Assembly: GCA_965216565.1 (NCBI GenBank)
Contig: OZ244170.1
Coordinates: 1,632,001-1,696,000 of the forward strand
From: Bythopirellula sp.
GTDB taxonomy: Bacteria > Planctomycetota > Planctomycetia > Pirellulales > Lacipirellulaceae
Length of the DNA: 64,000 bases
Direction of reading: 5' to 3'
Shown here piece after piece: positions 2,022 through 32,580 of this stretch (its first letter is position 1; every line of letters starts with the position of its first letter). A model generated the notes under the pieces. The model did not search any database. It was not told the DNA's origin and was given only the letters and a program-made list of their open reading frames with translations. A program made the position numbers and the translations under genes.

Positions 2022-3125
2022 GTGGGAACTAATCAAAATACGGAAGTAAAACGTTCTAGTTGCTGCATGTGGAAGCTCGCCGTTGCTTTGCTGCTCTTGA
2101 GGTTGTGCGTTGGCTGGCACTTTTTCGCCGAGGGCATAAAGAAGCTGTCGTACGATGAGAGTCGCCAAGCATGGAGCATGAACGTTCCTACTGAATACCT
2201 ATTTGGCCAGGCCGTCGGCCCACTGGCAAGCTTTTACCATAGTTTCGTTCCAGGCGACCACAATTGGCGAAGCACCCTTGCCGAGCCCAAGCAATTGACC
2301 CCGGAAAGTGCCAAAGAACTTTCCGACTGGATTGGTAAGTATGTCAAACGTCGGCAAGGTGAACTCAGGAATAATAAGCACACGGAAGTCGATCTCCCCG
2401 ACTTCCTGCCCTATACCTCTTGGTACAAAGAGATCGATACGGATCGACGCGAATTATTCGAGCAATTCACCAGCGTCCCAGGGCTAGAGGAAGAGCAGAA
2501 AGCGGCAGCAGCCGAGATCTTTGAAAAACGCGATCGTCAGCTCGCTGATTATCTGGCCGGAGAGTCGCTCGAAATCCAGACATATCAGCACGAGCTTTGG
2601 CGTTTGGAAAACATGAAGCAAGAGTCCGGGGCCGAAGAGATTCCGTATCGCGCACAACGGGCCATGAAGTCTCAAGCAGAGACCAGCAACAACCCGCGCC
2701 GGTGGGTCGCAACTGTGAAGTCCTACGATGCTGAGCTCGTTAATGACCTGAAGTCGCTTCTCTCGTCGGAGCAGCGCGGGACTCCCGTGGCAGCGACTGT
2801 CGACGAAGCACTGACGTCGCCTAAGGCAAAATCGCTGCACCTTATGAATGTAGCTGCTACTTGTCTCACAATCGGTGTAGGGCTCTGCTTGCTGACTGGA
2901 TTGTTTACTAGGTTAGCCTCGGTGCTCGGCATTGTGTTCTTGGTTTCCGTCATGGCGACCCAGCCTCCTTGGGTACCAGGCGCTCAAACCATGATGTTTT
3001 ACTATCAACTAGTTGAAGTAGCCGCGTTGGCTGTCCTAGCGACGTCCCGGGCTGGTCATGTGGCTGGTCTTGATTTTGTGATACACGGTCTTTGGTCAAA
3101 GTGTTGCGGCAGTAAGAACGCTTAA
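2022..3125 (+). CDS. DoxX family membrane protein with large extracytoplasmic insertion
   Basis: LLLRLCVGWHFFAEGIKK N-terminal DoxX helix, GLCLLTGLFTRLAS and GLD C-terminal motifs. GTG start uncertain. Confidence 0.8.
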   Translation: MGTNQNTEVKRSSCCMWKLAVALLLLRLCVGWHFFAEGIKKLSYDESRQAWSMNVPTEYLFGQAVGPLASFYHSFVPGDHNWRSTLAEPKQLTPESAKELSDWIGKYVKRRQGELRNNKHTEVDLPDFLPYTSWYKEIDTDRRELFEQFTSVPGLEEEQKAAAAEIFEKRDRQLADYLAGESLEIQTYQHELWRLENMKQESGAEEIPYRAQRAMKSQAETSNNPRRWVATVKSYDAELVNDLKSLLSSEQRGTPVAATVDEALTSPKAKSLHLMNVAATCLTIGVGLCLLTGLFTRLASVLGIVFLVSVMATQPPWVPGAQTMMFYYQLVEVAALAVLATSRAGHVAGLDFVIHGLWSKCCGSKNA

Positions 3126-3142: not shown

Positions 3143-4930
3143 ATGGATCTCTCTCCCGAAGAAAAAGAAGTTGGCAAGCAGAACTTTCTCGAAGCAGCAG
3201 GTGCGACGCGCCGCGACTTTTTGAAAGGCACCGTCCTGGCGACAGCAACCGCTGGCACAACACTCGGGGCTGCCTATTACAAGTACGGCGAAATTGGCAA
3301 CGACCGATTGCGGGTGGGCATTATCGGAACGGGCGACGAAGGCGGCGTACTGATTGGTGCACTCAATCCTGACTACATCGATGTGGTTGCAGTCGCTGAT
3401 ATCCGTCCTTATAGCACGCACCGCGCTTTCCACGGCGACAACTATAGCGCCGGCACTATCAAAGCTCGCCCAGGCTTGATGAGAGTTTACGGTTGGAAAA
3501 CCGAAGATGAAGCTCGCAAGCAAGTGAAGGTCTACGAGCACCCTGACGGTGGCTACAAGCAGATGCTTGATGACAAGGACCTCGACATCGATGCCGTTAT
3601 CATCGCGTTGCCCTTGCACTTGCACAACGAAGCCGCCATCTATGCGATGAAGAAGGGCAAGCATGTCCTAACCGAAAAGCTGATGGGGCATAGCGTCGGT
3701 GAATGCAAAGAGATGGCACGCGTGGCGGACGAGACGGGCTTGATTCTCGCAACAGGCCACCAACGTCACTACAACATCCTGTATGACAACGCCGTCGACC
3801 AAATCAGCAGCGGACTTATCGGAGACATTCATCACATCCGCGCTCAATGGCACCGAGCAAACTTGCCCGGACGCGATAGCTGGCAGCCACCGTTGCCTTG
3901 CCCATTTGTCAGCGAAGACGATTACAAAAACCTGATTCGTGCAGCCCGTAAGGTGAGCAAAGAAGCAGAACAAGATGTTCGTGACGAATACAAACTATTG
4001 GGCGAATACTACGCTTGGAAGCGCAAACTTAATACCACGACCGGTGCTGAATCTGACACCTGGGCGATGAAAGTCGCTCAAAAGCGGCAGCAAATTGAAG
4101 ACTATGTGGTCAAGAGTACCGTAGCCAACTACGGCTACGAAGAGAAATCGTTACCCGTCGGCAGAAAGCGAACTGCACTTGAAGAATTGATTCGTTGGCG
4201 ACTTTGGGATCGAACAGGCGGTGGCTTGATGGCCGAGCTAGGTAGTCATCAACTCGATGCCGCCAGCATCTTTATCAGTTCACAAAGCGAAGGACGAAAG
4301 AAGATGATGCCGCTGAGCGTCACGGGTGTGGGTGGAAGACACATTTTCCCAGCCGACCGGGACGTCGACGACCACGTCTACACCATGTACGAGTTCCCGG
4401 GGCGGGGCTATTACGCAGACGACAAGCAGCAGGAAGTGGCCGACCCCAATAAGAAAATCGTCGTTACCTATTCTTCGATCAATGGCAACGACTTTGGCGG
4501 TTATGGCGAAGTCGTATTGGGAACGCAGGGCACGTTGATCCTGGAACGGGAAAAAGACGTCATGCTCTACAAGAAGTCAGAGACATCGACGAAGATCTCC
4601 GTCAAAGACGGCGCTGGTGGCCCGGCACTCGACACCTACGAGACCGGTGGTGGTATGGCAGCCGTCGCGGCGGCAGCGATTCCCACTGAGGTCAGCCGAG
4701 GTTATCAGGAAGAGATCGAGCACTGGGCTTGGTGCATCAAGAACCCCGCGCCCGATCACAAGCCCAAGTGCCATCCCAAGGTTGCGCTCGCGGATGCTGT
4801 AATCGCTTTGACCTCGAACATTGCGATGGCTCGCAAGGAACGCATCGAGTTCAAGCCTGAGTGGTTTGACATCAATAGTGACGAGACTCCGGACGACAGG
4901 CCACCTCGGGGCGGTGGCGAACTTGCTTAA
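3143..4930 (+). CDS. Tat-exported Gfo/Idh/MocA family oxidoreductase
   Basis: TRRDFLK twin-arginine motif, RVGIIGTG, KHVLTEKLM, ELGSHQLD. Confidence 0.9.
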   Translation: MDLSPEEKEVGKQNFLEAAGATRRDFLKGTVLATATAGTTLGAAYYKYGEIGNDRLRVGIIGTGDEGGVLIGALNPDYIDVVAVADIRPYSTHRAFHGDNYSAGTIKARPGLMRVYGWKTEDEARKQVKVYEHPDGGYKQMLDDKDLDIDAVIIALPLHLHNEAAIYAMKKGKHVLTEKLMGHSVGECKEMARVADETGLILATGHQRHYNILYDNAVDQISSGLIGDIHHIRAQWHRANLPGRDSWQPPLPCPFVSEDDYKNLIRAARKVSKEAEQDVRDEYKLLGEYYAWKRKLNTTTGAESDTWAMKVAQKRQQIEDYVVKSTVANYGYEEKSLPVGRKRTALEELIRWRLWDRTGGGLMAELGSHQLDAASIFISSQSEGRKKMMPLSVTGVGGRHIFPADRDVDDHVYTMYEFPGRGYYADDKQQEVADPNKKIVVTYSSINGNDFGGYGEVVLGTQGTLILEREKDVMLYKKSETSTKISVKDGAGGPALDTYETGGGMAAVAAAAIPTEVSRGYQEEIEHWAWCIKNPAPDHKPKCHPKVALADAVIALTSNIAMARKERIEFKPEWFDINSDETPDDRPPRGGGELA

Positions 4931-4979
4931 GCTGCTAATACTTAAATCAATTCACAACCCACGCTAACGGAACTTTCAA

Positions 4980-5606
4980 GTGAAGACATTCCAAATTCAA
5001 ATTGCTCTGGCGGCAATGTTGGTGGTTGGGTGTAGCGAGAAAGAAGTGGCTACGCCAGAACCGTCCAGTTCTGAGAAAGCCACGACAGCTGTTTCGCCAG
5101 TCGTCCCGCAGTCGGATCTCAAACCAGCCGGAGATGAGGCAAGCCCTGGCCTGGCGATCGGGACAGAGGCTCCAAAGTTCGATCTGCCCGACCAGTATGG
5201 CGAGACGAAATCGCTGGTCGAACTACTTAAAACGAGTAGCGTGGCACTCGTTTTCTATCGCTCGGCTGATTGGTGACCATTCTGTCGCAAGCAGTTGGTT
5301 CAACTGCAAGGTGAGATGGAGACTCTGCGCGCCGCTGGCATTCAAGTCGTGGGCATTAGCTACGACGATGTTGGTATCCTACAAAAGTTCAGCGACGGGA
5401 ATGAGATCGGCTTCCCATTACTTTCAGATAGCGGCAGCAAGACGATTCGCGCGTACGGCTTGCACTTCAAAGACGGTCTGCCACATCCTGGTACCGTTCT
5501 GATTGGCCAAGATGGTGTGATCCGAGCCAAGATTTTCAGAGAGGGTTTTCGAACTCGCCATACGGTCGACGAGTTGGTTGCCGCGGCTGAAGAGCTAAAA
5601 GACTAG
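4980..5606 (+). CDS. AhpC/TSA (peroxiredoxin-like) lipoprotein, probable selenoprotein (in-frame TGA 5274-5276 read as Sec, U-P-F-C)
   Basis: ORFs 4980..5276 and 5295..5606 share a frame and join as ...LVFYRSADW-TGA-PFCRKQLVQLQ...; lipobox LVVGC; APKFDLPDQYG, VVGISYD and FPLLSD are AhpC/TSA motifs. Confidence 0.85.
5285..5314 (+). promoter_or_regulatory. Bacterial SECIS-like hairpin
   Basis: GCAGTTG-GTT-CAACTGC perfect 7-bp stem (5291-5307) with a G-initiated loop after a 21-nt spacer from the TGA; possible lower stem TCGC/GTGA. Confidence 0.7.
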
Positions 5607-5658
5607 CTCAATCTCTCGTATTCTTTGCAATCACATGTATTTCTCGGAGCGCCGCTCT

Positions 5659-7695
5659 TTAGAACCGATCGAGCGTATCAATCCAACGGGCAATGGCCGA
5701 GATGGTTTCCGGCTGTAACTCTCCAGACATTTCAGCGGAGTCTGCTACTGAGAGGGGTCGTTGCCACCAGCTTGTAGGGTAACCCGCGTCGGACAGCTCT
5801 TCGGCATTTTTTCGTATCAGTGGCACAAATGACGAGTTCGGAGTTTCCACGGCCAGAATACTCAACCGCCGGCCCGGCAGATTTGGTGGGAGTTTAAGTG
5901 TACGGGGTAGGGGGGCGTCGAGAGCGACGACTCCCGTCAAGTTACTGCCGCGACTAAACGCCAAGGCAAATGCCAGCTGCCCCGCTTTGCCGCTGCCTAG
6001 TACTGCGATGCGGTGCGCATCGATCGCAAAGCGGTTTCCTGCCGTCTGCAAAAGTATTTTCAAATATGCCAAGTCTTCACCCTTCCAGCCGGTATCCTTT
6101 TCTGGATGAGCAATTACCAAAAGTAACCCATTGCGATTGCAGTACTCTTGCCAACGCTCAGCTAACTGCTGATCAACTTTGTCGTCTCCGTCGGCGAGCC
6201 ACAATAAGAGTCCGTGGGGGCGTTCGTCGGACAACGGCGGGGAATAGTAATTGGCCACTTGGACAAACTCAGCCAGCTTCAAAGGCTTGAGTTCCAACTT
6301 GTCGGTTGATGACTTGCGGGCGTCATTACTGTGTTCGTCTGTGACGGGAAGCAATTCGTCGGGCATGTCAACAAGCTTTGCTGAAAACGCCAATTCTTTG
6401 GCATCTCTCGAGACCAGCAGGTCCACGGTACTACCTGCGGCCATTCCAGCAACAGTTTCTATAGCCTCTTCCAGATTCGAAAGTTCGGAATCGTTGATTT
6501 TCAGTAGCCGGTCACCCGACAGAATGCCTGCCTCAGCGGCGGGGCTTTCAGGCCAAATTTCGCGAACAGTGACGCCCGATTCTTTTTTATCGGTAGCGGT
6601 TTTCTCTGGCAGAGCACGCTCCGGTAGAACTCCCAAGAATGCGGCGCGATACGCGTCTAACTTTCCAGCTAGAACTACGTCTTGCGAGATTTCTTCATCC
6701 CCTCGCTTCACTGTAATCGAAAGCTCGTCTCCGGAGTAACGTGGCAAGAGCTCGAACCGAAGCTGGGCCTGGGTGCTTACCTGCTTGCCGTTGACGGCAA
6801 CGATAAGATCATCCTTCTGCCAACCCGCCTGTGCGGCTGGCGATCCTTGCCAGACTGTGGTGATACGAGGCGGAGTAACGTGGACCGAACCTTTCGCCAG
6901 GCCGATCCCAAGTTTGCCGGGAAGCAGATCTTCGCCTTGCTTCAATCGTGGCAGTATCCTCATGACCTGTTCGAGAGGAACCGCAAAGCCAATGCCGGAG
7001 TCATAGAATTCGGAGCCAGCTATTTCACTCTCTTCTCCCGAGGACTGTGGAGACATGGGAGTAAGCACCCCCAGGACCCCCCCCTGGATATCAACCAGCG
7101 GCCCACCATAGTTGGCCACCGATACGTTGGCGTCTGTTTGAATGACTCGTCCATACATTCTGTCCGTTGCGCTGACAATGCCCACGCTGAGGCCAACCTG
7201 CTCGGCTCGAAATGTTCGTCCAATAGCCACGGACCACTGCCCCACCTGCACTTGATCCTGCGGCGTTACTTCTGGCACAGGCAATTCCTGGTCGGCTTCC
7301 ACCTTCAGAAGCACGAGCATCCGGTTTTTATCTGAAGCCACCAACTCAGCCGGCACCTGAGAACCTGAGGGCAGGCGGATCAAAATCGAGGAAGGCTGTT
7401 GAACGAAATTGAAGGCGCTGGAAACGATGTACCCGTCGGCCGAAATAATCAAGCCAGTCGTCGGACCCTTGTTAATCGAAGTGCGACCAACACGATCGAG
7501 CCCGCCAACCGTCCTAATCTGAACCACAGAATCAGCAACACGCTCAGCGGCCGCTCGGAATGCTTCTTCCTCCAGCTGAGAAAGACTGGGAGCGGACCGT
7601 CTTACTTGGCTCTTGCATTGCGATGCGGTAGCAATCAGGCAGCACGCCACTAATGCGAACGAACCGAAGTTTAGTTGGAAAAGGCTTCCTCTCAT
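5659..7695 (-). CDS. HtrA/S1C-like pseudoprotease + 2 PDZ + C-terminal alpha/beta-hydrolase-like domain
   Basis: Signal peptide; TGLIISADGYIVSSAFN and IQTDANVSVANYGGPL (degenerate triad); two PDZ units (SPAAQAG, SPAAEAG); IDAHRIAVLGSGKAG. Confidence 0.8.
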   Translation of the reverse strand: MRGSLFQLNFGSFALVACCLIATASQCKSQVRRSAPSLSQLEEEAFRAAAERVADSVVQIRTVGGLDRVGRTSINKGPTTGLIISADGYIVSSAFNFVQQPSSILIRLPSGSQVPAELVASDKNRMLVLLKVEADQELPVPEVTPQDQVQVGQWSVAIGRTFRAEQVGLSVGIVSATDRMYGRVIQTDANVSVANYGGPLVDIQGGVLGVLTPMSPQSSGEESEIAGSEFYDSGIGFAVPLEQVMRILPRLKQGEDLLPGKLGIGLAKGSVHVTPPRITTVWQGSPAAQAGWQKDDLIVAVNGKQVSTQAQLRFELLPRYSGDELSITVKRGDEEISQDVVLAGKLDAYRAAFLGVLPERALPEKTATDKKESGVTVREIWPESPAAEAGILSGDRLLKINDSELSNLEEAIETVAGMAAGSTVDLLVSRDAKELAFSAKLVDMPDELLPVTDEHSNDARKSSTDKLELKPLKLAEFVQVANYYSPPLSDERPHGLLLWLADGDDKVDQQLAERWQEYCNRNGLLLVIAHPEKDTGWKGEDLAYLKILLQTAGNRFAIDAHRIAVLGSGKAGQLAFALAFSRGSNLTGVVALDAPLPRTLKLPPNLPGRRLSILAVETPNSSFVPLIRKNAEELSDAGYPTSWWQRPLSVADSAEMSGELQPETISAIARWIDTLDRF

Positions 7696-8792
7696 GGCTT
7701 TATTTCGTCTCGTTCATTTGCGTTTTCTTGAGCGCCCTGCTGGGGGTCGTCTGCTATGGATTCCTCTGTGTTATTCACAACCAGATCAAACACATAAAGC
7801 GTTCCGTCTCGTAGCACAGAGATTGTTACTCCCTCTTCCTTTTCGAGTCGACTCAATTGCCGATTGAGCGCTAGGCAAGAAACTACCGGATCGTCTCCGA
7901 CAAACACCACCAAGTCGTCGGCCTGCATGCCAGCCTTCGCGGCTGAGGAATAGGGGAGTACCGCATCGACATAGGGCGGTGTGCGTCGCAACACATCTGG
8001 CACTAGCATGAAGCCCAAGTCTGCGGTCGTCATTGCCGACTCGGGGGGTAACGCGCTATCGGCAATGCCCTCGACTTCCCGACCGGCAATGATGTCTGCC
8101 ACAACTGGCGCCAAATCGGTAGCAGGCAATGCGTAGTTCAGCCAGGTGCCCGTCATGCGGCTGCGGAGTTCTTTTCCCAGTAATCCAATCAAGTTTCCCC
8201 GCCAATCGACCAACGCCCCTCCGGCAGCACCGGGGTTGTTGGACTGAGCATCTAGAACATACACTTCGCCGCGATACTGGGTTTGCTGAGCACCTCGTCG
8301 AGCATCGAGCGGAGCGACGGCGGTAATCACACCCTGCAACACACTGGCTGCTTCATCTCCAGTTGCGATGCCATACAGATTACTCACCGCCAGGACACGC
8401 TGTCCCGTGTGCCCAGAGACTGAGGCAGACAAATCGAAATAAGGCAGCCCGCTTAGTTCGCTCTTGGGTCGGAGGACTGCCAACTCTCGGATTGGATCGG
8501 TACCAACAATCTCGGGGTGCAATTTCCGACCATCATCGAGCACGGCCACTAAATCGTCGGTGTCCAATACATAGCTCATTGCTGTGAGAATATGTCCTTC
8601 GGCAGAAATGAGAATCCCTGTCTGATAGGCTTCCATCTGTCGCAGGCCACCAGCTCCGTAAAGCTTCACCACATTCTGCTGCGCACTGCGGATGGTGCGA
8701 TGTAGTTCCTGGGCCTCCAGAAAAGGACCAACGACAAGCATCGTGCAGCAAGTGAATAAGCCACAAACAACATTAGCGGCAGAGCGGATCAT
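7692..8792 (-). CDS. HtrA/S1C-like pseudoprotease with PDZ
   Basis: TGILISAEGHILTAMSYV and NNPGAAGGAL (Ser replaced by Ala); C-terminal PDZ; 4-bp overlaps with both neighbours. Confidence 0.82.
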   Translation of the reverse strand: MIRSAANVVCGLFTCCTMLVVGPFLEAQELHRTIRSAQQNVVKLYGAGGLRQMEAYQTGILISAEGHILTAMSYVLDTDDLVAVLDDGRKLHPEIVGTDPIRELAVLRPKSELSGLPYFDLSASVSGHTGQRVLAVSNLYGIATGDEAASVLQGVITAVAPLDARRGAQQTQYRGEVYVLDAQSNNPGAAGGALVDWRGNLIGLLGKELRSRMTGTWLNYALPATDLAPVVADIIAGREVEGIADSALPPESAMTTADLGFMLVPDVLRRTPPYVDAVLPYSSAAKAGMQADDLVVFVGDDPVVSCLALNRQLSRLEKEEGVTISVLRDGTLYVFDLVVNNTEESIADDPQQGAQENANERDEIKP

Positions 8793-10540
8793 TTTATTTC
8801 CCAGGCATCGACGTCGAGCTCGACGAATATCTCACCGCCATGCGAAACGGTAAGTCGCCGCGGCAATTGCTTACCCTTCACTTCCACATAGTCGGCTAGT
8901 CGCAGAACGCAAGGATCAAGATAATCTGCTGGAAATAGATCGATGCCCATAAGCTCGCCCGTTTCCAGCGAAAAGAGAAAGTGCGTCAGCATGCCGTCAT
9001 AATTGCCAACCAGACAATCGACTAACTCGCCATCCGCGCCACTCGGCAATCGTCCTAGATAGTAAGTCTCGCCAAACTTACTTAGCCCCTTCTCGAGCAG
9101 ACGCTGCCACAAATGCAATGTCAGCAAAAACCCTCCAGATCCCGGCGGGCTCAACTGCGAACTAAGATCACCCCGAAAGCTAGTCCTATAATTGCCATAG
9201 GGTAGCCGCAAAGAAGCTTCGATTTGACTGAGGTTTAGTGAGAACGGCCTGCCGTCAGCAATCGTGCCAGTGGCGGACCAATCGTAGCCGACTTGCTCGA
9301 GGTGGGCGAGGTTTTGAAACGTGTCCCACAGCGATTTTTGTTTTTCTAAGTTGTACCAGTAATTCGCATAACCACGCCGCGCAATGTATCTCGCAGCAAC
9401 TTCGTCGGGAAGCTTCTGTTCCGCTTTGCGACGCACAAGCTCCTTGCGGGGACCCTGTTTGCGCGGATCGTCCTCGTCTTCTGGCTCCTTTTGGAGGGGA
9501 GGTTCGATCGGCTTTTCGGCTTCCTGCTGGACCAAGTCCCAAAGCTGTGCGCGATCGTGAGCCCCCATCAACCGGACGAATGTTTCAAACAGTTCGCCAT
9601 CACGACGGTAAGTAAGGGGGACAATCCAACCCTTAGGAAAAACACCCAACGCATTTTTTAGTGTGTTAGCCGTGCTAATCGTACGGCCTGCAAACTCGAC
9701 AATCTGATCCCCATATCGAAGGCCACGTCGATAGGCATCGGATGTTTCCAAAATATCGTCTACCAAAACGCGGTCATCTTCCGATGTGGAAACAATCGCC
9801 CCCAAGGTCGCATGATCGACGATTCGACCACTCTCGAGATACCCCAGAAAGCGGTTCACCTGACTAAGAGAAATCGCATAGCCCACTCCTACGTTTACTC
9901 GTCCGCGCTTTTCGAACGAGCAGCGACCATTGATGCCGACTAAGCGCCCGTCGGAGTCGAACAAAGGGCCACCCGAGTTGCCGGGGTTGATGGCGGCATC
10001 GGTCTGAATGCATTCTGCATATTCCAGCAGCGTCCCAGCAGGATATTGATACCGCTTAATGCCGGAGACGATTCCGTAACTTATCGACGGCGTAAAATCG
10101 TCCGCCAAGAGAAACGGATTTCCCGCGGCAAACACCCAGTCGCCTACAGCCACGGTATCACTATCGCCCATTTCAGCCACCGGAAAATCGTAGCGGCCTA
10201 GCAACTGAATGAGTGCGACATCGCCGACCGGATCGATTCCTACAATCACCGCGTCGTAAGTTTCTCCATTGTTCAGTCCACATTTCATCGCTGGGCCACA
10301 TGGTGCGGTAACGTGAAAGTTGGTTAGAGCGTAACCATCAGCAGAGATAAGCACCCCAGAGCCTCCACCTTGACCGGTGCCATCGAAGATAGCGATGGTT
10401 GCTTCCGAGGCCCGTTCAATCGCTGCAATCCGCTGTGCCTCGGCTTCAAGCACAGAACTTGGAACTTCCGCGCCGGCAGAGCATACCGCGAGACAATAGA
10501 TCAACAGAAAGGGCAGGGCGATGGTTTTCAAGTTTTTCAT
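8789..10540 (-). CDS. S1C/HtrA trypsin-like serine protease with PDZ and C-terminal extension
   Basis: Intact triad: LTNFHV (His), DPVGDVAL (Asp), INPGNSGGPL (Ser); signal peptide. Confidence 0.92.
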   Translation of the reverse strand: MKNLKTIALPFLLIYCLAVCSAGAEVPSSVLEAEAQRIAAIERASEATIAIFDGTGQGGGSGVLISADGYALTNFHVTAPCGPAMKCGLNNGETYDAVIVGIDPVGDVALIQLLGRYDFPVAEMGDSDTVAVGDWVFAAGNPFLLADDFTPSISYGIVSGIKRYQYPAGTLLEYAECIQTDAAINPGNSGGPLFDSDGRLVGINGRCSFEKRGRVNVGVGYAISLSQVNRFLGYLESGRIVDHATLGAIVSTSEDDRVLVDDILETSDAYRRGLRYGDQIVEFAGRTISTANTLKNALGVFPKGWIVPLTYRRDGELFETFVRLMGAHDRAQLWDLVQQEAEKPIEPPLQKEPEDEDDPRKQGPRKELVRRKAEQKLPDEVAARYIARRGYANYWYNLEKQKSLWDTFQNLAHLEQVGYDWSATGTIADGRPFSLNLSQIEASLRLPYGNYRTSFRGDLSSQLSPPGSGGFLLTLHLWQRLLEKGLSKFGETYYLGRLPSGADGELVDCLVGNYDGMLTHFLFSLETGELMGIDLFPADYLDPCVLRLADYVEVKGKQLPRRLTVSHGGEIFVELDVDAWEIK

Positions 10541-32507: not shown

Positions 32508-32580
32508 TGGTCAGGGCCGGGATCGAACCGGCGACACATGGATTTTCAGTCCATTGCTCTACCAACTGAGCTACCTGACC
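32508..32580 (-). tRNA. tRNA-Phe (GAA)
   Basis: GGTCAGG TAGCTCAGTTGGTAGAGC AATGGA CTGAAAA TCCAT GTGTC GCCGG TTCGATC CCGGC CCTGACC A; cloverleaf with GAA anticodon; CCA not encoded. Confidence 0.97.

Follow-up and report, generated by a model that had tools for sequence, protein, structure and literature searches.

Nucleotides 4980 to 5606 on the forward strand of the window, the 64,000-nucleotide stretch of a Bythopirellula sp. genome analyzed here (contig OZ244170.1, positions 1,632,001 to 1,696,000), are strongly supported as a UGA-recoded selenoprotein gene. The explanation that best accounts for the whole, part of which we infer, is a SelB-decoded, exported selenoprotein with a thioredoxin fold that acts as an oxidoreductase of the ResA/TlpA type; we put its probability at about 0.9. 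Translation of the window gave one frame from 4980 to 5606 that is interrupted once, by the TGA at 5274-5276, within the peptide FYRSADW-U-PFC-RKQLVQLQ, just as an earlier note on this DNA had described it (a single frame broken by one TGA in W-TGA-P-F-C). Under translation table 11, the frame is read as two separate ORFs, one of 98 aa (4980..5276) and one of 103 aa (5295..5606), the latter starting with a TTG located 19 nt 3' of the TGA. By exact look-up, both fragments and the full product were absent from a collection of 15 billion proteins. The features of the gene are as follows.

4980..5606, + strand: complete selenoprotein coding sequence (GTG start, 208 codons, TAG stop at 5604-5606)
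4980..5033, + strand: predicted signal peptide ending in the lipobox V-V-G-C with Cys18 (codon 5031-5033), judged by eye from the translation
5034..5150, + strand: low-complexity Pro/Ser/Ala/Glu-rich linker, residues 19-57 (low pLDDT, variable among orthologs)
5157..5528, + strand: AhpC/TSA (thioredoxin-fold) domain, residues 60-183 (Pfam PF00578, 7e-30, 104 bits, cut-off 26)
5274..5276, + strand: UGA codon 99, read as selenocysteine (Sec), first position of U-P-F-C (TGA/Cys alternation in this column)
5283..5285, + strand: Cys102 (TGT), which together with Sec99 makes up the U-x-x-C redox centre (without variation in alignments A2 and A3)
5291..5307, + strand: SECIS apical hairpin within codons Q105-L-V-Q-L-Q110 (stem 5291-5297/5301-5307, loop GUU 5298-5300)

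We searched the genome for the Sec machinery, as the earlier note had proposed, and all of it was found. selA (510 bits), selB (337 bits), selD in a fused form (276 bits) and tRNA-Sec (72.6 bits) all scored above their curated cut-offs and cluster at C1:683702-689622; ARAGORN likewise reported a tRNA-SeC with the anticodon TCA (UCA in RNA). TGA is otherwise an ordinary stop codon in this genome, terminating 687 of the 2425 frames of at least 300 codons. The same note had suggested that another route of UGA read-through would be indicated if Sec machinery were lacking. Because selA, selB, selD and tRNA-Sec are all present, no such route is needed, and this suggestion falls away.

The codon at this position was then compared among relatives. 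The same column is TGA in nine further genomes, which contribute eight co-linear orthologs and one distant paralog; all of the co-linear orthologs come from the same genome family save one, which belongs to another family. The TGA, always in the W-U-P-x-C column of the orthologs, persists in relatives with as little as 38% protein identity, in which both halves of the protein are conserved. An ortholog at E<=1e-25 was present in 9 of 120 genomes of the family, the window's own included, and eight of these carry one TGA. The ninth, stop-free ortholog (G028) has TGC at the column and no hairpin. In a sample of the phylum, 2 of 401 genomes have an ortholog, namely the window's own and one other (G121), with TGA. 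Among the best 120 database homologs, the column is Cys in 105 and Trp in 14. Of 80 metagenome loci, 74 bear the motif, with TGA in 70, TGC in 3, TGT in 1 and TGG in none, a TGA share that is biased by a query alignment rich in TGA forms and by the search pattern P-x-C-x-x-[QH]-L-[VI]-Q, the only one able to catch TGA forms, which forces part of the hairpin-coding peptide. In genomes, all 80 Cys-form loci use TGC or TGT; the pattern in that contig scan matches Cys or Trp codons only and is uninformative on the frequency of TGA forms. The alternation of TGA and Cys that a homolog alignment was expected to reveal is thus present in one column.

Downstream of the TGA lies a perfect 7-bp hairpin, GCAGTTG (5291-5297), GTT (5298-5300) and CAACTGC (5301-5307), which begins 14 nt after the UGA and has a G-first loop 21 nt after it, exactly the stem, loop and spacer that had been noted from the sequence. 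The bacterial SECIS rules that we used call for a loop of 3-9 nt with G within its first two positions, a stem of 4-16 bp, a spacing of 16-37 nt and an MFE of <= -7.5 kcal/mol. The hairpin of this gene has a 3-nt loop (GUU), a 7-bp stem and a spacing of 21 nt, and the whole local fold reaches -16.3 kcal/mol; the apical stem by itself, at -7.4 kcal/mol, is marginally weaker than the energy rule. Folding of the 81-nt region was no more stable than that of shuffled sequences (z = 0.30), and as many as 787 TGA sites across the genome satisfied a crude bSECIS-like filter. When the whole window was scanned with Rfam at gathering scores, a tRNA at 32508-32580 was the sole match; the hairpin gave none, which means that it did not attain the score of any curated family, and nothing more. 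As a single sequence, the hairpin is not beyond chance.

It is lifted above chance by comparative evidence. Across nine genome sequences, 95.2% of cells were paired and three pairs had changed on both sides. Across 79 sequences (62 distinct), 97.7% were paired, versus 1.6-43.1% with slid partners. The covariation score of the nine sequences was reached by 0 of 500 shuffles, and doubly changed cells numbered 44 in the 79 sequences, where shuffles gave 16.9 +/- 3.2; these counts overstate significance, since the sequences, being related, do not amount to independent observations. Among the distinct sequences, pair 5295/5303 occurs as C-G 36 times and as U-A 26 times, and pair 5294/5304 as G-C 40 times, as A-U 17 times and as G-U 5 times; neither is unpaired in any. 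The variation falls on synonymous sites in Gln and Leu codons. By contrast, just 4 of the 80 loci with Cys keep all seven pairs. Orthologs do not share the lower stem of the window's fold. Geometry and covariation together support the assignment of a bacterial SECIS. As in established bacterial Sec decoding, SelB carrying Sec-tRNA(Sec) would bind this small hairpin beginning 14 nt past the UGA and deliver Sec at codon 99, and the ribosome would therefore go on to the TAG at 5604.

We considered whether the TGA is instead a real stop, leaving a pseudogene, two small genes (98 and 103 aa) or an assembly error. Table 11 does yield two ORFs, the second with its possible TTG start 19 nt past the TGA, and TGA often serves as a stop in this genome. 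However, the TGA column is kept in the nine further genomes, to 38% identity, and in 70 metagenome loci; a covarying hairpin would be unexpected beside a nonsense mutation; and the Pfam AhpC-TSA match runs across the TGA and needs both halves, neither of which alone is a complete thioredoxin fold. An assembly error also fits poorly: contigs from two other studies showed no difference at codon 5274-5276, though differences occur nearby, and the contigs of three studies agree on TGA. This reading is close to refuted, and we regard it as having next to no chance of being correct. A strain variant 97.6% identical to the window has TTG as its start codon, where the window has GTG, and differs downstream of the TGA by 4 synonymous and 3 non-synonymous changes, a number too small to demonstrate selection. 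No RNA run containing the gene was found among the sequencing runs listed.

Decoding of the UGA without SelB and Sec-tRNA(Sec), through near-cognate insertion of Trp or Cys or through a suppressor tRNA, is also very improbable. The Trp found at the column in 14 of the best 120 database homologs would at face value mean that UGA is read as Trp. Yet TGG was found in 0 of the 74 metagenome loci and TGA in 70 of them (a share raised by the query bias noted above), so the database Trp residues most simply reflect translation of TGA as Trp by a gene caller. Moreover, Trp would destroy a redox motif that has Cys in 105 of the 120 homologs, the whole Sec pathway is encoded in the genome, and TGA terminates 687 long frames there. 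Taken together, the Sec machinery, the TGA/Cys alternation, the covariation and the independent assemblies support the 208-aa, UGA-recoded U-x-x-C selenoprotein of the AhpC/TSA family that the earlier note had proposed.

We next turn to the active site. In the AlphaFold model (pLDDT 85.1, about 95-98 over residues 60-160), helix 100-111 begins directly after residue 99. The motif at residues 98-102 is W-U-P-F-C, that is, U-x-x-C and not T-x-x-U. Foldseek matched the model to BCP/PrxQ, AhpE and ResA-type structures. In alignments, Sec99 falls on the first Cys of the ResA motif W-C-P-H-C, and Cys102 on its second Cys as well as on the peroxidatic Cys of PrxQ 2cx3. Pro170, nearly invariant across the family, falls on the cis-Pro position of ResA, an assignment that rests on alignment to 4nmu and 3c71. 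No NCBIfam model reached its cut-off for the protein, leaving its function unpinned to any characterised enzyme: among peroxiredoxin models, BCP NF006960 scored 62 bits (cut-off 140), PrxQ NF053650 44 bits (260) and PrxU NF040737 31 bits (270), and ResA NF002854 scored 48.8 bits (170) and DsbE TIGR00385 22.4 bits (123; DsbE models 22-24 bits).

These data bear on whether the protein is a true peroxiredoxin, in which Sec99 or Cys102 would attack peroxide and the main job would be removal of peroxide in the envelope; such an enzyme would be fully compatible with the selenoprotein assignment. AhpC/TSA is the best Pfam family, the PrxQ/BCP protein 2cx3 is the best solved relative by sequence, with Cys102 on its peroxidatic Cys, and Bcp4, PrxQ, BcpB and AhpE head the Foldseek list. 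Selenols, in addition, reduce peroxides well, as in the chemistry of GPx-type enzymes. However, the active-site motif of peroxiredoxins is P-x-x-x-T-x-x-C, with a catalytic Thr, and here the position three before Cys102, in R-S-A-D-W-U-P-F-C, is Sec99 itself, so that this Thr is missing. A conserved catalytic Arg precedes the peroxiredoxin beta strand '...R-x-x-F-[IV]-[IV]...', and the Arg of the 2cx3 strand 'KRAVFIV', which we take to be this residue, is aligned with Pro170; the peroxiredoxin Arg is thus missing as well. The scores against the BCP equivalog and PrxQ models fall far below their cut-offs, a ResA-type chain (rank 8, TM 0.85) fits the structure about equally well, and published passages separate UxxC forms of AhpC/TSA from TxxU peroxiredoxins. 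We therefore judge a true peroxiredoxin unlikely. The earlier description as peroxiredoxin-like stands for the Pfam family AhpC/TSA but does not extend to the catalytic site, which lacks both Thr and Arg and looks like one of the ResA/TlpA type.

The active site looks like that of ResA/TlpA-type thiol:disulfide oxidoreductases, although the protein lies outside those curated families. Like ResA, TlpA and CcmG (DsbE), which are exported or membrane-tethered thioredoxin-fold proteins with W-C-x-x-C, it has a redox pair in which Sec99 corresponds by alignment to the first Cys, Cys102 to the second and Pro170 to the conserved Pro of '...PLPT...', and its model superposes on the ResA-type structures 4nmu (TM 0.85) and 2h19 (TM 0.81). 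Unlike in those proteins, the attacking Cys is replaced by Sec, the overall sequence is closer to BCP/PrxQ, and cytochrome c maturation genes are not beside the gene. Members of PrxQ/BCP (Aeropyrum pernix 2cx3 and Sulfolobus Bcp4 3hjp) are in fact the best matches (61.8 bits; Foldseek E 2.9e-14), from which the protein differs in having Sec99 and Pro170 at the catalytic Thr and Arg positions and in scoring below the BCP equivalog cut-off. In the oxidoreductase reading, Sec99 would occupy the N-terminal end of helix 1, where the W-C-x-x-C motif has its attacking Cys, with Cys102 as its partner, and the pair would most likely alternate between the selenol/thiol and the selenylsulfide state. This would make the protein a thiol:disulfide (selenylsulfide) oxidoreductase of the cell envelope, of the ResA/TlpA type; direct reduction of peroxide by the selenol may be a second activity.

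The N-terminus, M-K-T-F-Q-I-Q-I-A-L-A-A-M-L-V-V-G-C18, fits the lipobox consensus [LVI][ASTVI][GAS]C with a predicted V-V-G-C lipobox, which supports the lipoprotein that the earlier note had proposed. Among the orthologs with a visible N-terminus, lipobox-like ends are also found in four (G096, G027, G017 and G102), and three others (G041, G103 and G028) have an ordinary signal-peptide end, not a lipobox. A probable LspA reaches 76.7 bits with neighbouring pieces (cut-off 73.95), and a candidate Lgt, matched in two pieces (88.7 and 29.4 bits) within a single 438-aa frame, just misses the cut-off of 118.9. Residues 1-50 of the model lack secondary structure (pLDDT 51-62), and the linker differs in length and sequence between orthologs. 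Judging from these sequence features, the product would carry an N-terminal signal peptide for export, probably a lipid anchor at Cys18, and a flexible linker ahead of the domain.

Selenoproteins of this general kind are already in print. UxxC AhpC/TSA proteins are one of the commonest predicted selenoprotein families of bacteria. They are described in passages of PMC2398784, PMC1088965, PMC9312934 and PMC13188914, and Table 2 of PMC2398784 gives 225 selenoproteins and 2,740 Cys homologs for Prx-like UxxC proteins (pfam00578). As described in those passages, these proteins, including 'Prx-like 1' of the Global Ocean Sampling selenoproteome, share with ours the Pfam family, the U-x-x-C that replaces T-x-x-U, a SECIS hairpin just past the UGA and many Cys homologs; the likeness is one of description, not of a subfamily established by alignment with the papers' reference sequences. 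The lipoprotein signal and the family-wide hairpin encoded by Q-L-V-Q-L-Q are found here and are not mentioned in the published passages on Prx-like UxxC proteins. Split AhpC/TSA and peroxiredoxin selenoprotein candidates have also been reported in the planctomycete 'P1' (PMC4807772, Table S9), which likewise has full Sec machinery. P1 is a different organism, compared here by description and not by sequence, and Table S9 holds no covariation or distribution analysis such as that given above. The earlier note had called the selenoprotein hidden: this is true of the frame, which is split under the standard code, but not of the family, which is common and has published split candidates in planctomycetes.

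The family, the mechanism and Sec decoding in Planctomycetes being in print, the gene is a genuine selenoprotein gene of an ordinary kind and opens no new question. It adds a well-documented, exported and probably lipid-anchored U-x-x-C selenoprotein in a planctomycete, with a SECIS constrained at synonymous sites. A comparison of Sec with Cys forms reveals how this RNA element moulds the protein, as Q-L-V-Q-L-Q is fixed in the Sec forms and free in the Cys forms. It also bears on annotation. The standard code splits the gene and some public protein sets appear to show Trp; because the gene is split in the one case and the codon apparently translated as Trp in the other, the active-site residue is lost either way.

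The surroundings of the gene suggest that it has no operon partner, since a tblastn search with the three flanking proteins at 10 ortholog loci, each with 1.5 kb flanks, found just two hits, both weak (22-26%) and to Gfo/Idh/MocA paralogs. Elsewhere in the genome, the usual selenoprotein families that we checked, formate dehydrogenase-type molybdoenzymes, thioredoxin, Rdx/SelW, AhpD/CMD and Thioredoxin_8, contain no TGA. A hairpin-plus-motif scan of TGA-containing frames yielded 787 sites, 161 of them with Cys within three residues, and was rejected: it was too unspecific, and the focal gene escaped it on account of an apical stem that by itself has -7.4 kcal/mol. When 8166 TGA read-through frames were ranked by dicodon coding score, the focal gene came 22nd. 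Of the best 20 frames of this ranking, which were compared with Pfam, 17 proved to be ordinary genes lying next to each other in one frame, two had no family, and one was an FG-GAP candidate. Because only these best 20 frames were checked against Pfam, the selenoprotein set of the genome is 'at least two', not a census. The second candidate is a predicted FG-GAP repeat lipoprotein with a U-C motif; no relevant paper on an FG-GAP or VCBS selenoprotein was among those listed by our literature search, though FG-GAP selenoprotein candidates do stand in Table S9 of PMC4807772.

Both selenoprotein genes found, for the U-x-x-C redox protein and the FG-GAP repeat protein, encode predicted lipoproteins. 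It is conceivable, if doubtful, that the Sec apparatus is kept mainly for envelope proteins and that one nearly fixed SECIS encoded by Q-L-V-Q-L-Q marks a widespread subfamily. If so, selenium would serve extracytoplasmic, lipid-anchored redox defence, and the element would mark a subfamily widespread in soil and water metagenomes.

We read the frame at 4980-5606 as a genuine selenoprotein gene, with a probability of about 0.9. The earlier note had proposed, from the sequence alone, a single frame broken by one TGA and followed by a SECIS hairpin with a 21-nt spacer and a G-initiated loop. Translation confirmed the frame, and the hairpin proved exact; the selenoprotein reading itself was borne out by the Sec machinery of the genome, TGA/Cys alternation among relatives, hairpin covariation and independent contigs. 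The gene lies in the following surroundings:

2022-3125, + strand: DoxX-like membrane protein, upstream of the focal gene
3143-4930, + strand: Gfo/Idh/MocA oxidoreductase, upstream, 49 nt from the focal start
4980-5606, + strand: selenoprotein frame, 208 codons long, starting with GTG and ending in TAG (by translation)
5291-5307, + strand: SECIS-type hairpin (by sequence), with arm GCAGTTG at 5291-5297, loop GTT at 5298-5300 and arm CAACTGC at 5301-5307
5659-10540, - strand: three consecutive trypsin-like/PDZ (HtrA-type) proteases, downstream and convergent to the focal gene

The lone TGA of the frame (5274-5276) encodes residue 99 (Sec99) in the read-through context ...LVFYRSADW-U-PFC-RKQLVQLQ..., 21 nt from the G-first loop. 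The standard bacterial code splits the frame into ORFs of 98 aa and 103 aa, and neither these fragments nor the full product were present in a 15-billion-protein collection. A Pfam AhpC/TSA match covers residues 60-183 across the TGA (104 bits versus a cut-off of 26). None of the neighbours was conserved beside orthologs (within 1.5 kb), and therefore no functional partner was inferred from position. The first of the three proteases is a 678-aa protein with a long C-terminal extension lacking a Pfam match.

By itself, the focal hairpin is no more than chance, and the case rests on comparison across genomes. Folding of the 81-nt hairpin region was no better than that of shuffled versions (z = 0.30), with the apical stem alone at -7.4 kcal/mol and the whole local fold at -16.3, and a crude bSECIS-like filter passed 787 TGA sites throughout the window's own genome (G000). 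We searched 120 same-family genomes, including G000, with the read-through protein as query (E<=1e-25). Nine had an ortholog; in eight of these the match contained a single TGA, and in the ninth none. In a phylum sample, two of 401 genomes had an ortholog, namely G000 and G121 (from another family), the latter also with one TGA. When the loci were translated, the TGA fell in the W-U-P-x-C column in G096, G027, G017, G041, G102, G105, G103 and G121, as it did in a distant paralog from G077 (38% identity); in G028, whose ortholog is stop-free, the codon is TGC (W-C-P-H-C).

In the best 120 protein-database homologs, the residue at the Sec column is Cys (105), Trp (14) or Ser (one). Scanning of metagenome contigs gave 80 loci, 74 of them with the motif, in which the codon was TGA in 70, TGC in three, TGT in one and TGG in none; this TGA share is biased, the query alignment being rich in 'Trp' forms, and TGA forms could be caught only via a second pattern (P-x-C-[QRK]-[KR]-[QH]-L-[VI]-Q). 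All 80 loci returned by a one-genome-per-species scan, whose pattern matches Cys and Trp codons only, had TGC or TGT, and their hosts were Lacipirellulaceae, Gemmataceae, Opitutaceae and other Verrucomicrobiota, Acidobacteriota and Hyphomonadaceae. The alternation for which the earlier note had suggested aligning homologs was thus found at one shared column in genomes, database homologs and metagenome loci. The 14 Trp homologs (P0007, P0012-P0016, P0019, P0021, P0023, P0027, P0029, P0030, P0033 and P0034) read W-W-P-F-C, and all share the hairpin-encoding peptide Q-L-V-Q-L-Q. Because the related metagenome loci carry TGA in 70 of 74 cases and never TGG, this Trp is probably the product of gene callers translating TGA as Trp; if so, selenoproteins are systematically mis-translated in metagenome protein sets. 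The TGA form in G121 (L056, G121:C37) lies in a 445-aa frame, which is longer by ~200 residues at the C-terminus and has a long extension at the N-terminus as well; possibly it is a fused family variant. The focal gene is the only one of 19 AhpC/TSA matches in G000 to contain a TGA, and no TGA occurs in that genome's thioredoxin, Rdx, molybdopterin, CMD or Thioredoxin_8 matches.

Across the nine co-linear sequences from genomes, 95.2% of cells were paired at the seven base pairs proposed for the hairpin, with two-sided changes at three pairs, and covariation was 0.310 versus 0.165 +/- 0.040 in column shuffles (0/500 reached the observed value). Addition of 70 metagenome sequences gave 79 rows, 62 of them distinct, with 97.7% of cells paired versus 1.6-43.1% when the 3' arm was slid by 1-3 columns. 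Doubly changed cells numbered 44 versus 16.9 +/- 3.2 in shuffles, although such shuffle figures overstate significance because the compared sequences are related, not independent. Among distinct rows, pair 5295/5303 was C-G in 36 and U-A in 26, and pair 5294/5304 was G-C in 40, A-U in 17 and G-U in five, with neither ever unpaired. The varying pairs fall on third bases of Gln codons and first bases of Leu codons in Q105-L-V-Q-L-Q110, a peptide that the search pattern partly dictated for the metagenome set but not for the genome set. Since the compensating changes are synonymous, protein constraint cannot explain them, and the alignments indicate that the hairpin is selected as RNA. Seven pairs were present in 63 of the 70 TGA-form metagenome loci and six in the other seven. 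In Cys forms, seven pairs were present in 4/80 loci (range 2 to 7), and the peptide at this place was variable (KGQLIQ, KTQLAE, KKQLQD and others). The hairpin also persists in two of the four metagenome loci with Cys forms, as would be the case if Sec had only recently been replaced by Cys. Three TGC loci, L064 and L124 (metagenome) and L138 (a Gemmataceae genome), retain a 6-7-bp hairpin together with Q-L-V-Q-L-Q; this hairpin appears to be a fossil SECIS left by a recent switch from Sec to Cys.

G000 is a single contig (C1) of 5.21 Mb, in which selA (510 bits), selB (337), selD (276) and tRNA-Sec (72.6) each exceeded the curated cut-off and lie clustered ~0.95 Mb before the window:

C1:683702-689622: Sec machinery cluster (loci L001, L005, L013 and L015; profile matches), with selA and selB both on the - strand, followed by selD and tRNA-Sec, both on the + strand

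ARAGORN likewise called a tRNA-SeC, its anticodon being TCA. With this full set, the other UGA read-through route held in reserve by the earlier note is not needed. Elsewhere in G000 TGA is a normal stop, terminating 687 of 2425 frames of at least 300 codons. SelD is part of a 736-aa fusion protein, of which it forms the C-terminal half; the N-terminal half is a pyridine-nucleotide-disulphide oxidoreductase (Pyr_redox_2, NADH-dehydrogenase-like). This arrangement corresponds to the Ndh-SelD fusion of the ocean selenoproteome paper (PMC2398784).

An assembly error at the TGA was ruled out by contigs of public sequencing runs. We compared four runs over 4900-5700. Two from one study showed zero differences, possibly because the assembly was made from them. 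The full stretch was also covered by a run of a second study, with 19 differences across its 801 bases, and 4986-5284 by one of a third study, with eight; neither differed at 5274-5276, and TGC, TGT or TGG did not occur there. The 16 within-gene differences comprised one change of the GTG start to TTG, seven synonymous and eight non-synonymous changes; the four synonymous and three non-synonymous ones downstream of the TGA are too few for measuring selection. Among the runs listed as containing the gene, none was from RNA. Extra short contigs in runs X5 and X6, derived from other organisms, stack only on the W-U-P-x-C region (5248-5285), and their loose ends continue into other hairpin variants, e.g. 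GCAATTG-GTC-CAATTGC; therefore, further members of the family live in those samples.

Selenoproteins of the UxxC type have long been predicted, as a family, within pfam00578: Table 2 of PMC2398784 lists 'Prx-like 1' (pfam00578, UxxC) with 225 selenoproteins and 2,740 Cys homologs, and passages of PMC9312934, PMC13188914 and PMC1794560 name a 'Prx-like thiol:disulfide oxidoreductase'. Table S9 of PMC4807772 documents Sec decoding in one planctomycete, where candidates of the 'peroxiredoxin' and the 'alkyl hydroperoxide reductase/TSA' type are split, every one of them being 'annotated as two separate genes'. We placed the focal protein with both by description, and claim no identity with their entries. 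The gene is an already-known kind of selenoprotein, and the Sec machinery of its genome is ordinary. Judging from its closest named relatives and from DUF1559 proteins, which are typical of that group, the organism itself is a planctomycete.

Read by eye, the N-terminus (M-K-T-F-Q-I-Q-I-A-L-A-A-M-L-V-V-G-C18) looks like a lipoprotein signal peptide. A similar lipobox occurs in four orthologs (G096, G027, G017 and G102), and an ordinary signal-peptide end in G041, G103 and G028; predicted export looks better conserved among orthologs than lipid anchoring. In G000, LspA was found, and Lgt was matched in two pieces (88.7 and 29.4 bits), below the cut-off of 118.9.

In an AlphaFold model built with 24 homologs (mean pLDDT 85.1), residues 1-57 (signal peptide and linker) are disordered, confidence begins at about residue 60, and helix 100-111 starts directly after Sec99. 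Foldseek gave matches of about equal quality to BCP/PrxQ, AhpE and oxidoreductases of the ResA type (3hjp, E 2.9e-14; 1xxu, TM 0.91; 4nmu, TM 0.85), and no NCBIfam model reached its cut-off (BCP 62/140, ResA 49/170, SelL-related 45/120). The nearest solved protein by sequence is Aeropyrum PrxQ (2cx3, 61.8 bits), in which the peroxidatic Cys stands opposite Cys102, a Ser opposite Sec99 and the Arg of 'KRAVFIV' opposite Pro170. In ResA, both Cys of W-C-P-H-C stand opposite Sec99 and Cys102, and the Pro of 'PLPT' opposite Pro170. These comparisons suggest a peroxiredoxin-like scaffold with a thioredoxin/ResA-type active site and Sec as the attacking residue. We lean slightly towards an envelope thiol:disulfide (selenylsulfide) oxidoreductase; a peroxidase reducing peroxides is an unlikely alternative.

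Scoring the TGA read-through frames of G000 by dicodon use, combined with Pfam, pointed to a likely second selenoprotein gene:

C1:3109339-3110859, - strand: FG-GAP candidate selenoprotein (L218/L237), 507 aa, predicted lipoprotein (...LLVGGC...)

FG-GAP and FG-GAP_3 repeats flank its lone TGA on both sides (P-G-V-W-U-C-T-S-S-T-P-Q-L-V-D-L-N), no NCBIfam family claims it, and a small hairpin (UCCAC-AGUUG-GUGGA) lies 19 nt downstream of the UGA. The column is TGA in G096 (62%) and G117 (67%) and TGC in G062 and G032; a relative in G041 (38%) has a TGA inside the match, its column unconfirmed as the motif search gave no match there. FG-GAP selenoprotein candidates of a planctomycete already appear in Table S9 of PMC4807772.
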